Positions 33,970 to 34,137 of a stretch of 39,041 nucleotides of DNA are shown here, in pieces. The position numbers were made by a program, and so were the translations under genes. Each line of letters begins with the position of its first letter. Positions within the stretch are counted from its first letter, which is position 1. The stretch is taken from IMG/VR virus record IMGVR_UViG_2667527592_000008. One strand, 5' to 3'. A model generated the notes under the pieces. The model saw nothing but the letters and a program-made list of their open reading frames with translations, ran no database searches and was not told the origin of the DNA. The stretch comes from a virus. Its lineage: Duplodnaviria > Heunggongvirae > Uroviricota > Caudoviricetes.

Positions 33970-34137
33970 TAGGTTACCCTTAAAAGTTATCCGTGCGGAT
34001 AACACCGCCGTGTTATCCCTTCGGATATAAGTATTGATCCACAAATAGAAAATTACAAGCTTTCTTTTCTTGCTTTGGTGAAAAGAAAGTCTTTTTGTAG
34101 AAATATGTTGTAAATCAATAGATTGCGAGGAAAGAAA
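33970..34137. promoter_or_regulatory. Divergent early/repressor control region with two TTATC-N6-GATAA-type operator palindromes
   Basis: GTTATCCGTGCGGATAAC (33986..34003) and TTATCCCTTCGGATATA (34013..34029) lie between the divergent Ner-like and repressor genes in an AT-rich stretch. Confidence 0.55.

Follow-up and report, generated by a model that had tools for sequence, protein, structure and literature searches.

A nested palindrome beside ner in an enterobacterial Mu-like prophage is probably a Ner operator

The DNA analyzed here (“the window” in what follows: the whole stretch of 39,041 nucleotides of the virus record IMGVR_UViG_2667527592_000008) carries, in reverse orientation, the left end of a Mu-like prophage. 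The early operon, ner-A-B, has ner as its first gene and lies on the minus strand, and a gene for a repressor diverges from it. The genes and landmarks of the locus are as follows.

30779-31672, minus strand: gene for a B-like AAA ATPase
31691-33733, minus strand: gene for a MuA-like transposase (Pfam Mu-transpos_C, rve core and PF02316)
33733-33969, minus strand: ner, 78 amino acids, Ner/HTH_35 family
33972-33982, minus strand: ner ribosome-binding region TAAGGGTAACC, read from the sequence and a conserved block in all lineages
34138-34785, plus strand: repressor gene, 215 amino acids, CI-type HTH, GTG start
35091-35097, no strand assigned: left end of the prophage (...CCCCACA), past which an alignment with copies at other insertion sites diverges

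The Ner protein matches Pfam HTH_35 at 7e-26 and PHROG 769, is identical to the RefSeq protein WP_000989761.1 (annotated with 237 nt in E. coli C5 and E2348/69), and among PDB sequences finds EnrR at 6e-17 and Mu Ner (1NEQ) at 9e-13. The repressor matches Pfam Phage_CI_repr (PF07022) at 1e-5 and the “transcriptional repressor” family PHROG 3037 at 3e-58; a sequence search against solved structures yielded no relative of it, the hits being at chance level. As between the repressor and the transposase, PF02316 is confined to the transposase, where Pfam places this Mu DNA-binding domain at residues 7-140, and the transposase N-terminus (residues 1-60) matches both PF02316 and the DNA-binding domain of the D108 c repressor (tblastn 1e-6; L022 667-840). 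The arrangement of Mu, in which one DNA-binding fold serves repressor and transposase, is absent here, the repressor of this prophage belonging to the unrelated CI-type family.

A gap of 168 bp (33970-34137) separates the ner ATG (33969, minus strand) from the repressor GTG (34138, plus strand); this is exactly the interval that a first-pass annotation of this DNA had described as separating divergent repressor and Ner-like genes. The same annotation took the interval for the control region of a Mu-like prophage, an identification that is correct; the region is situated about 0.9-1.1 kb from the left end at 35097, as in Mu.

Several observations concern the DNA around the left end itself. An open reading frame of 876 amino acids (34978-37608), listed as beginning at 34978, starts within phage DNA, the prophage ending at 35097; the remainder of it encodes an autotransporter of the PIC/Hap/IgA type (beta-solenoid and Autotransporter beta-domain) with the N-terminal part missing, and the prophage seems to have landed in a SPATE-like autotransporter gene and truncated it. 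Beyond the autotransporter lie a gene for a MarR-family regulator (37734-38258) and the start of a P4-type integrase gene (38703-39041; Arm-DNA-bind_3), and the prophage is therefore placed within a genomic island. Some 120-190 bp inside the left end, positions 34900-34985 hold repeated AAAAGCGC/GCGCTTTT words (CAAAAGCGCCCAGAAAAAAGCGCAAAAAAAAGCG), which are candidate end-binding sites for the transposase; parts of this region were flagged as hairpins by a terminator scan.

The 168-bp gap contains two palindromes, P1 and P2, and a dyad shared between them, none with a strand assigned.

33986-34003: palindrome P1, GTTATCCG-TG-CGGATAAC, with perfect 8-nt arms; half-sites a and b
34012-34028: palindrome P2, GTTATCCC-TT-CGGATAT, imperfect; half-sites c and d
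33997-34018: inner dyad, GGATAACAC-CGCC-GTGTTATCC, made up of P1's right arm and P2's left arm (half-sites b and c)

The pattern TTATCN6GATAW occurs in the 39-kb window only as TTATCCGTGCGGATAA (33987-34002) and TTATCCCTTCGGATAT (34013-34028), against an expectation of 0.13 by chance, confirming the two TTATC-N6-GATA(A/T) palindromes reported in the first pass. The match at 33987-34002 is found on both strands, being a perfect palindrome, and none of 100 shuffled windows contained three matches. Copies with one mismatch are present elsewhere in the window (2227, 23232, 30490 and 33246), each as an isolated single site. P1 and P2, 26 bp apart from start to start, together make a single 43-bp nested dyad (33986-34028), the 18-nt arms of which are 83% complementary; it comprises four TTATCC/GGATAA half-sites with centers 10, 16 and 10 bp apart, and its best conserved part is the inner dyad, with arms of 9 nt and a spacer of 4 nt. 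The nested dyad can alternatively be taken as TTATCCnnnCGGA units recurring every 13 bp, a pattern that is plainer in the relatives. On one side it adjoins the ner ribosome-binding site, stopping 17 nt short of the ner ATG. An AT-rich setting had been described for the palindromes: the gap has 35% G+C, as that description implies, but the palindrome block itself reaches about 51% (22 of its 43 bases). Among the papers searched, none describes the P1/P2 palindromes.

An early promoter, Pe, is predicted next to the dyad.

34030-34058, minus strand: predicted Pe, with -35 TTGTAA (34058-34053), a 17-nt spacer and -10 AATACT (34035-34030)

In 16 of 20 lineages this is the best-scoring sigma-70-like site on the ner strand, lying 57-60 nt from the ner ATG as measured from the -10; the spacer is always 17-18 nt, and the hexamers are represented by the block AGTATTGATC, when read on the ner strand, and a conserved TTGTAA, TTTACA or TTGATA hexamer 17 nt upstream. 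We infer from this conserved sequence that the site is the early promoter. In the window it matches 8 of 12 consensus positions and in a second clade it is near consensus (TTGACT-17-TATGAT); a stricter built-in promoter scan of 33700-35000 found no sigma-70 site, and Pe was recognized only through its positional conservation across lineages. The predicted start, at about 34022, would fall inside P2 and would put P1 at about +20 to +37 of the leader of the early mRNA; the palindromes are situated wholly on the ner side of the Pe -10, over and downstream of the predicted start. A search of the plus strand for a conserved repressor promoter found none. Two candidates were considered and set aside as weak and not conserved in position: TTGTAG-18-TAGATT in the window, and TTACCC-18-GATAAT within P1 of some relatives, where the window has GATAAC. 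A Dam site, GATC at 34036-34039 within AGTATTGATC, abuts the predicted Pe -10, and T[TC]GATC is found at this spot in all 12 lineages of the family to which the window belongs and is absent from the L067 clade; this recalls the Dam control of the IS10 and Tn5 transposase promoters and could equally reflect plain conservation of a promoter.

On the far side of the Pe -10 the DNA is characterized by short repeats and a site matching the consensus for IHF; only the IHF site has a strand assigned.

34045-34053: AAAGAAAG-type repeat A, weak, in the Pe spacer
34060-34069: AAAGAAAG-type repeat B, CTTTCTTTTC, abutting the Pe -35
34080-34089: AAAGAAAG-type repeat C, GAAAAGAAAG
34113-34125, plus strand: IHF consensus AATCAATAGATTG (WATCAANNNNTTR)
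34131-34138: AAAGAAAG-type repeat D, overlapping the repressor SD and GTG
34164-34173: AAAGAAAG-type repeat E, TTCCTTTTCT
34180-34190: AAAGAAAG-type repeat F, AGAAAAGAAAG

Four of the seven exact copies of AAAGAAAG/CTTTCTTT in the window fall within 34060-34190, 1.14 being the expectation for the window as a whole. Repeats A and B bracket the Pe -35, and repeats E and F constitute an inverted pair inside the first 18 codons of the repressor gene. The IHF consensus is one of two matches in the window (1.23 expected). Sixteen of 20 lineages have such a site, with no more than one mismatch, 25-30 nt ahead of the repressor start, and in nine of them it is perfect. Among repeated words on the repressor side AAAGAAA dominates: 10 of 12 lineages contain 41 copies in total, in a conserved layout. 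Nearly all lineages also have an inverted pair of AAAGAA-type words within the first 18 or so codons of the repressor gene; in the L067 clade this pair is AAAGAAC-N6-GTTCTTT, with other arm sequences and at another codon position, which suggests a constraint at the level of the DNA and not the peptide FSF...KES alone. The nested dyad, the AAAGAAAG/CTTTCTTT repeats and the IHF consensus are all additions to what the first pass had recorded.

Relatives of the region were sought in three ways. It is present in 49 of the 5426 complete genomes of E. coli, EPEC E2348/69 among them, and in the Yersinia Muvirus phages vB_YpM_5 and vB_YpM_6; a protein-guided scan added 17 loci from Edwardsiella, Morganella, Photorhabdus, Sodalis, Klebsiella, Phytobacter, Pantoea, Erwinia, Citrobacter and Kluyvera; and the pattern GTTATCCN4GGATAAC returned 120 stretches of viral contigs, 13 of which have a ner homolog starting 17 nt away, among them a new clade with a Ner about 50% identical to that of the window. 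An alignment of 17 lineages has high information at the ner ribosome-binding site, at the TTATCC/GGATAA elements of P1 and P2, and at the block AGTATTGATC; the 4-nt centers of the palindromes vary. The spacing from P1 to P2 is 24 or 26 bp, depending on the clade, and the inner arms of Sodalis L010 are a perfect 11 nt (ACCGATAACAC-GGAT-GTGTTATCGGT). Such a comparison with related Mu-like prophages had been proposed as a check on the palindromes, and they are indeed conserved, but they are inherited with ner and not with the repressor.

The prophages of E. coli C5 and E2348/69 encode a Ner identical to that of the window, and their DNA is near-identical to it up to position 34041 (identical in C5; with one substitution, inside P1, in E2348/69). 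Past 34041 both diverge, and the repressors are 51% and 67% identical, respectively, to that of the window. Across the window's own family neither the repressor helix, WGLPYSTLNNY, nor the palindromes vary; with an invariant helix Ner and the repressor are not separable in this family, and it is the heteroimmune clade from the viral contigs that separates them. There, the Ner proteins of L067/L124/L041, L118 and L141/L062 are 82-92% identical to each other (84-92% for L067, L118 and L141 alone), and the ner-side segments of 62 nt are 94-100% identical in the comparisons involving L118 or L141, with P1 as GTTATCCGCGCGGATAAC and P2 as GGTATCCGTATGGATAAA. The repressors of L067, L118 and L141 are only 34-37% identical, and their recognition helices (ININTLQNYY, INFSTLKNYY and INLSTFKNYF, versus LPYSTINNYF in the window) differ at positions 1, 2 and 5, which are those that usually read bases. 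Each repressor type comes with its own inverted repeat centered on the Pe -35, AAGAACAC..., GGACTCGAAA... or GGCTTTAAAAAG..., while the ner side stays constant, so that the repeats go with the repressor and the palindromes with ner. Taken over some 20 related lineages, the dyad is co-inherited with ner and independently of the repressor.

The residues of Ner that would face the DNA vary along with the sites. Lineages with a Ner helix of KDSLK or PDTLK have TTATCC/GGATAA half-sites; in Photorhabdus, with the helix SSTLSNAL, the arms of the ner-side dyad are of the AAATAAT/ATTATT type and resemble the EnrR consensus AATAAATNATTTATT. Asp40 of the window Ner aligns with Arg47 of EnrR, and this position differs between the two classes of site. 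As counterpoints, L016 has a divergent Ner helix (GSLKSVL) and still has TTATCC sites, and the half-site spacing of 10, 16 and 10 bp is unlike the tight palindrome of EnrR.

Given these observations, we consider it very probable that regulatory proteins of the lysis-lysogeny switch bind at the palindromes, and that the nested dyad of P1 and P2 is probably the operator of the prophage Ner, the Cro-like regulator of Mu-type phages. This and every other protein-DNA assignment made here is a reading of sequence. The first-pass annotation had called the palindromes likely lysis-lysogeny control sites; a regulatory role is very probable, but they most likely belong to the Ner arm of the switch and are not repressor operators.

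The alternative that P1 and P2 are operators of the CI-type lysogeny repressor, with a dimer on each 16-18-bp palindrome blocking the early promoter and maintaining lysogeny, we regard as improbable. CI/Cro-type HTH dimers typically bind 14-18-bp dyads in adjacent copies, and in both dyad form and adjacency the sites resemble these operators, as known from lambda, 434 and 186: P1 and P2 are 16-18 bp long, their separation is 26 bp, and the predicted Pe start falls within P2. The joint invariance of helix and palindromes in the window's family is as this alternative would have it, and the T, N and Y of the repressor helix are conserved in all clades, so that the repressors might share a TTATCC specificity. 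Against this, the palindromes stay unchanged while the repressors fall to 34-37% identity and the helix changes at positions 1, 2 and 5, and it is the inverted repeats at the -35 that change with the repressor; the recombination boundary at 34041/34042 assigns the palindromes to the module of ner; in Photorhabdus the repressor helix is kept whereas the ner-side arms differ; and the ner-proximal position is that of the Mu Ner sites and of the D108 dyad.

A second alternative makes the dyad mainly an RNA element: the early transcript would begin with a stable hairpin, which would act on mRNA stability or on ner translation with no dedicated protein. In the predicted leader the nested dyad folds at -19.9 kcal/mol (z = -3.75), with the inner dyad as a 9-bp stem, and in Sodalis L010 the two inner arms have changed together, GGATAA to CGATAA and TTATCC to TTATCG. 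However, symmetric changes are equally expected of a symmetric protein site, the one-sided changes TTACCC (L006), TTAACC (L017) and GAGTAA (L012) are uncompensated, and a single half-site sequence is reused four times and conserved as sequence; the hairpin depends moreover on the predicted start site, and nested inverted repeats unavoidably yield one as a by-product. We consider this reading very unlikely as the main role, although an RNA role in addition to that of a protein site is possible.

The faintest of the alternatives is that the palindromes are a transposition enhancer bound by the Mu I-alpha-like N-terminal domain of the transposase: that protein has PF02316 at residues 7-140 and an N-terminus matching the D108 c repressor, its gene is co-inherited with ner and the palindromes, and the site is about 1.1 kb from the left end, where the enhancer lies in Mu, but the dyad beside ner is kept in loci with no transposase, a perfect dyad is no feature of Mu enhancer sites, and TTATCC is unlike the Mu repressor/MuA (I-alpha) consensus, which is CTTTT-rich and resembles the AAAGAAAG repeats.

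Co-inheritance of the transposase gene with ner is also a possible confounder for the Ner assignment itself. The loci that speak to it are ner-repressor pairs that have no MuA-like gene and have kept the dyad beside ner (Photorhabdus, L007-L011; Citrobacter, L018), and these could be decaying loci. Those of L007-L009 and L011 (Photorhabdus) and L018 (Citrobacter sp. JGM124) are divergent pairs with the conserved promoter block and dyad, and downstream of them lie genes for small membrane proteins or an IS transposase. By analogy with EnrR in Edwardsiella, such transposase-less pairs may be domesticated or remnant switch modules.

If the palindromes serve Ner, the repressor would be expected to act elsewhere, and the AAAGAAAG/CTTTCTTT repeats of 34045-34190 are the likelier repressor operators. 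From their placement we propose repeats A-C as an O2-like operator and repeats D-F as an O1-like operator; this assignment is less secure than that of the palindromes to Ner. The repeats could also be, in place of or in addition to repressor operators, the transposition enhancer. Pointing toward the transposase as their reader, two transposase-less lineages are largely without AAAGAAAG repeats, and the transposase N-terminus is homologous to the Mu-type repressor domain; pointing toward the repressor, L118 and L141 share the transposase N-terminus and differ in the repeats around the -35.

A working model can be put together from these assignments. Upon induction or infection Pe would fire and Ner would accumulate; several Ner monomers would then assemble on the half-sites of 33986-34028, in the manner of EnrR and of D108 Ner, and the bound protein would throttle open-complex formation or promoter escape at Pe. 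The outcome would be negative autoregulation of ner together with the transposase and B ATPase genes, and, if the analogy with Mu extends so far, repressor synthesis would perhaps also be turned down by Ner. The lysogeny repressor would act on two groups of AAAGAAAG/CTTTCTTT repeats that have the IHF site between them, one group around the Pe -35 (34045-34089) and the other where its own gene begins (34131-34190).

The locus is thus best read as an ordinary phage switch of a Mu-like prophage in which Ner is paired with a CI-type repressor, the nested dyad being the putative Ner operator, and the principle of Mu-type switches is unchanged by it. Modular exchange is documented between a ner/operator cassette and a repressor/operator cassette, in a family with relatives among Yersinia phages and in Edwardsiella, Morganella, Sodalis and others. 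In this family, studies of immunity and induction would look to the palindromes for control by Ner, and to the AAAGAAAG repeats and IHF site for control by the repressor. TTATCC/GGATAA is in addition a testable half-site for the Ner subfamily with Asp at the base-contacting helix position, complementing the one solved DNA complex of the Ner family, that of EnrR. In Mu, repressor and transposase have one DNA-binding fold and compete for the same operator/enhancer. It is conceivable, though we hold it as doubtful, that in this widespread enterobacterial Mu-like group the coupling of the two through a shared fold and a shared operator/enhancer has been dismantled, with the ner-dyad cassette independently exchangeable; the AAAGAAAG repeats would then be composite sites for two non-homologous proteins, or else enhancer and operators would be separate, and the ner-plus-dyad cassette would have been retained alone in the transposase-less loci of Photorhabdus and Citrobacter, as happened with EnrR.

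Comparison with the known systems begins with the Mu operators, to which the palindromes had been equated by position in the first pass. In Mu these are laid out as O1, an IHF site, and O2 over Pe. The equivalence of the palindromes to O1-O3 is not supported: the repressor is CI-type where that of Mu is PF02316-type, the palindromes lie on the ner side of Pe and are not IHF-split clusters over the promoter core, and they stay constant across repressor swaps where operators would change. A likeness to O1-IHF-O2(-O3) is seen in the AAAGAAAG repeats, A/T-tract elements in two groups that flank a conserved IHF consensus, one group over the core of the early promoter and the other at or in the start of the repressor gene. 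Like the Mu elements, they are some 0.9-1.05 kb from the left end. Two differences from Mu are that the repressor of the window is not homologous to the Mu repressor and that one putative group extends into the repressor coding sequence.

The palindromes are more like the Ner-binding region of Mu, which in GenBank AF083977 comprises 991-1028 and 1063-1101 and reaches the ner start at 1099. Both are in the ner-proximal part of the gap, overlap the early promoter and run up toward the start of ner, and down-regulation of early transcription by Ner would be common to the two by analogy. The sites in the window are ner-proximal, have at least two inverted elements and an HTH_35 protein as neighbor, and follow Ner and not the repressor in their specificity, as would be expected of Ner operators. 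The half-sites themselves are unlike those of Mu, where the Ner-binding consensus is of the CTAAGT type and the region has CTAAGT-type repeats. Mu Ner is 39% identical to the window Ner, and its partner in Mu is a winged-helix repressor homologous to the MuA N-terminus, whereas the partner in the window is a CI-type HTH protein.

In D108 a dyad, CCGTGAGCTAC-N8-GTAGCTCACGG (11-8-11), is situated directly before the ner ribosome-binding site. We take it to be the operator of D108 Ner, which was reportedly found to bind it by Kukolj, Tolias and DuBow in the late 1980s. The two dyads share two long inverted arms, a short spacer, a position between the early promoter and the adjoining ner ribosome-binding site, and an HTH_35 protein as neighbor, D108 Ner being 45% identical to that of the window. 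The arms are unrelated, CCGTGAGCTAC in D108 versus (C)GGATAAC(AC) in the window; the spacer is 8 bp in D108 versus 4 bp; and in the window, unlike in D108, the arms are themselves palindromic, so that there are four half-sites.

Among proteins of solved structure, the window Ner is closest (6e-17) to EnrR of Edwardsiella piscicida (PDB 7F9H/7F9I), which belongs to the Ner family and comes from a decayed prophage (PMC9023278). EnrR is a monomer in solution and binds a palindrome through its HTH as a closely packed pair; Arg47, in the helix RTLSNAM, contacts a base, and the experimentally determined consensus is AT-rich, AATAAATNATTTATT or CTATAG, with a very short spacer (PMC9023278). One of the two top ChIP-seq peaks of EnrR is upstream of its own gene (PMC9023278), which provides a precedent for autoregulation by a Ner protein. 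EnrR acts genome-wide, as an antagonist of H-NS (PMC9023278); the sites of the window, unlike those of EnrR, are GC-balanced, TTATCC-N4-GGATAA, and appear to be local.
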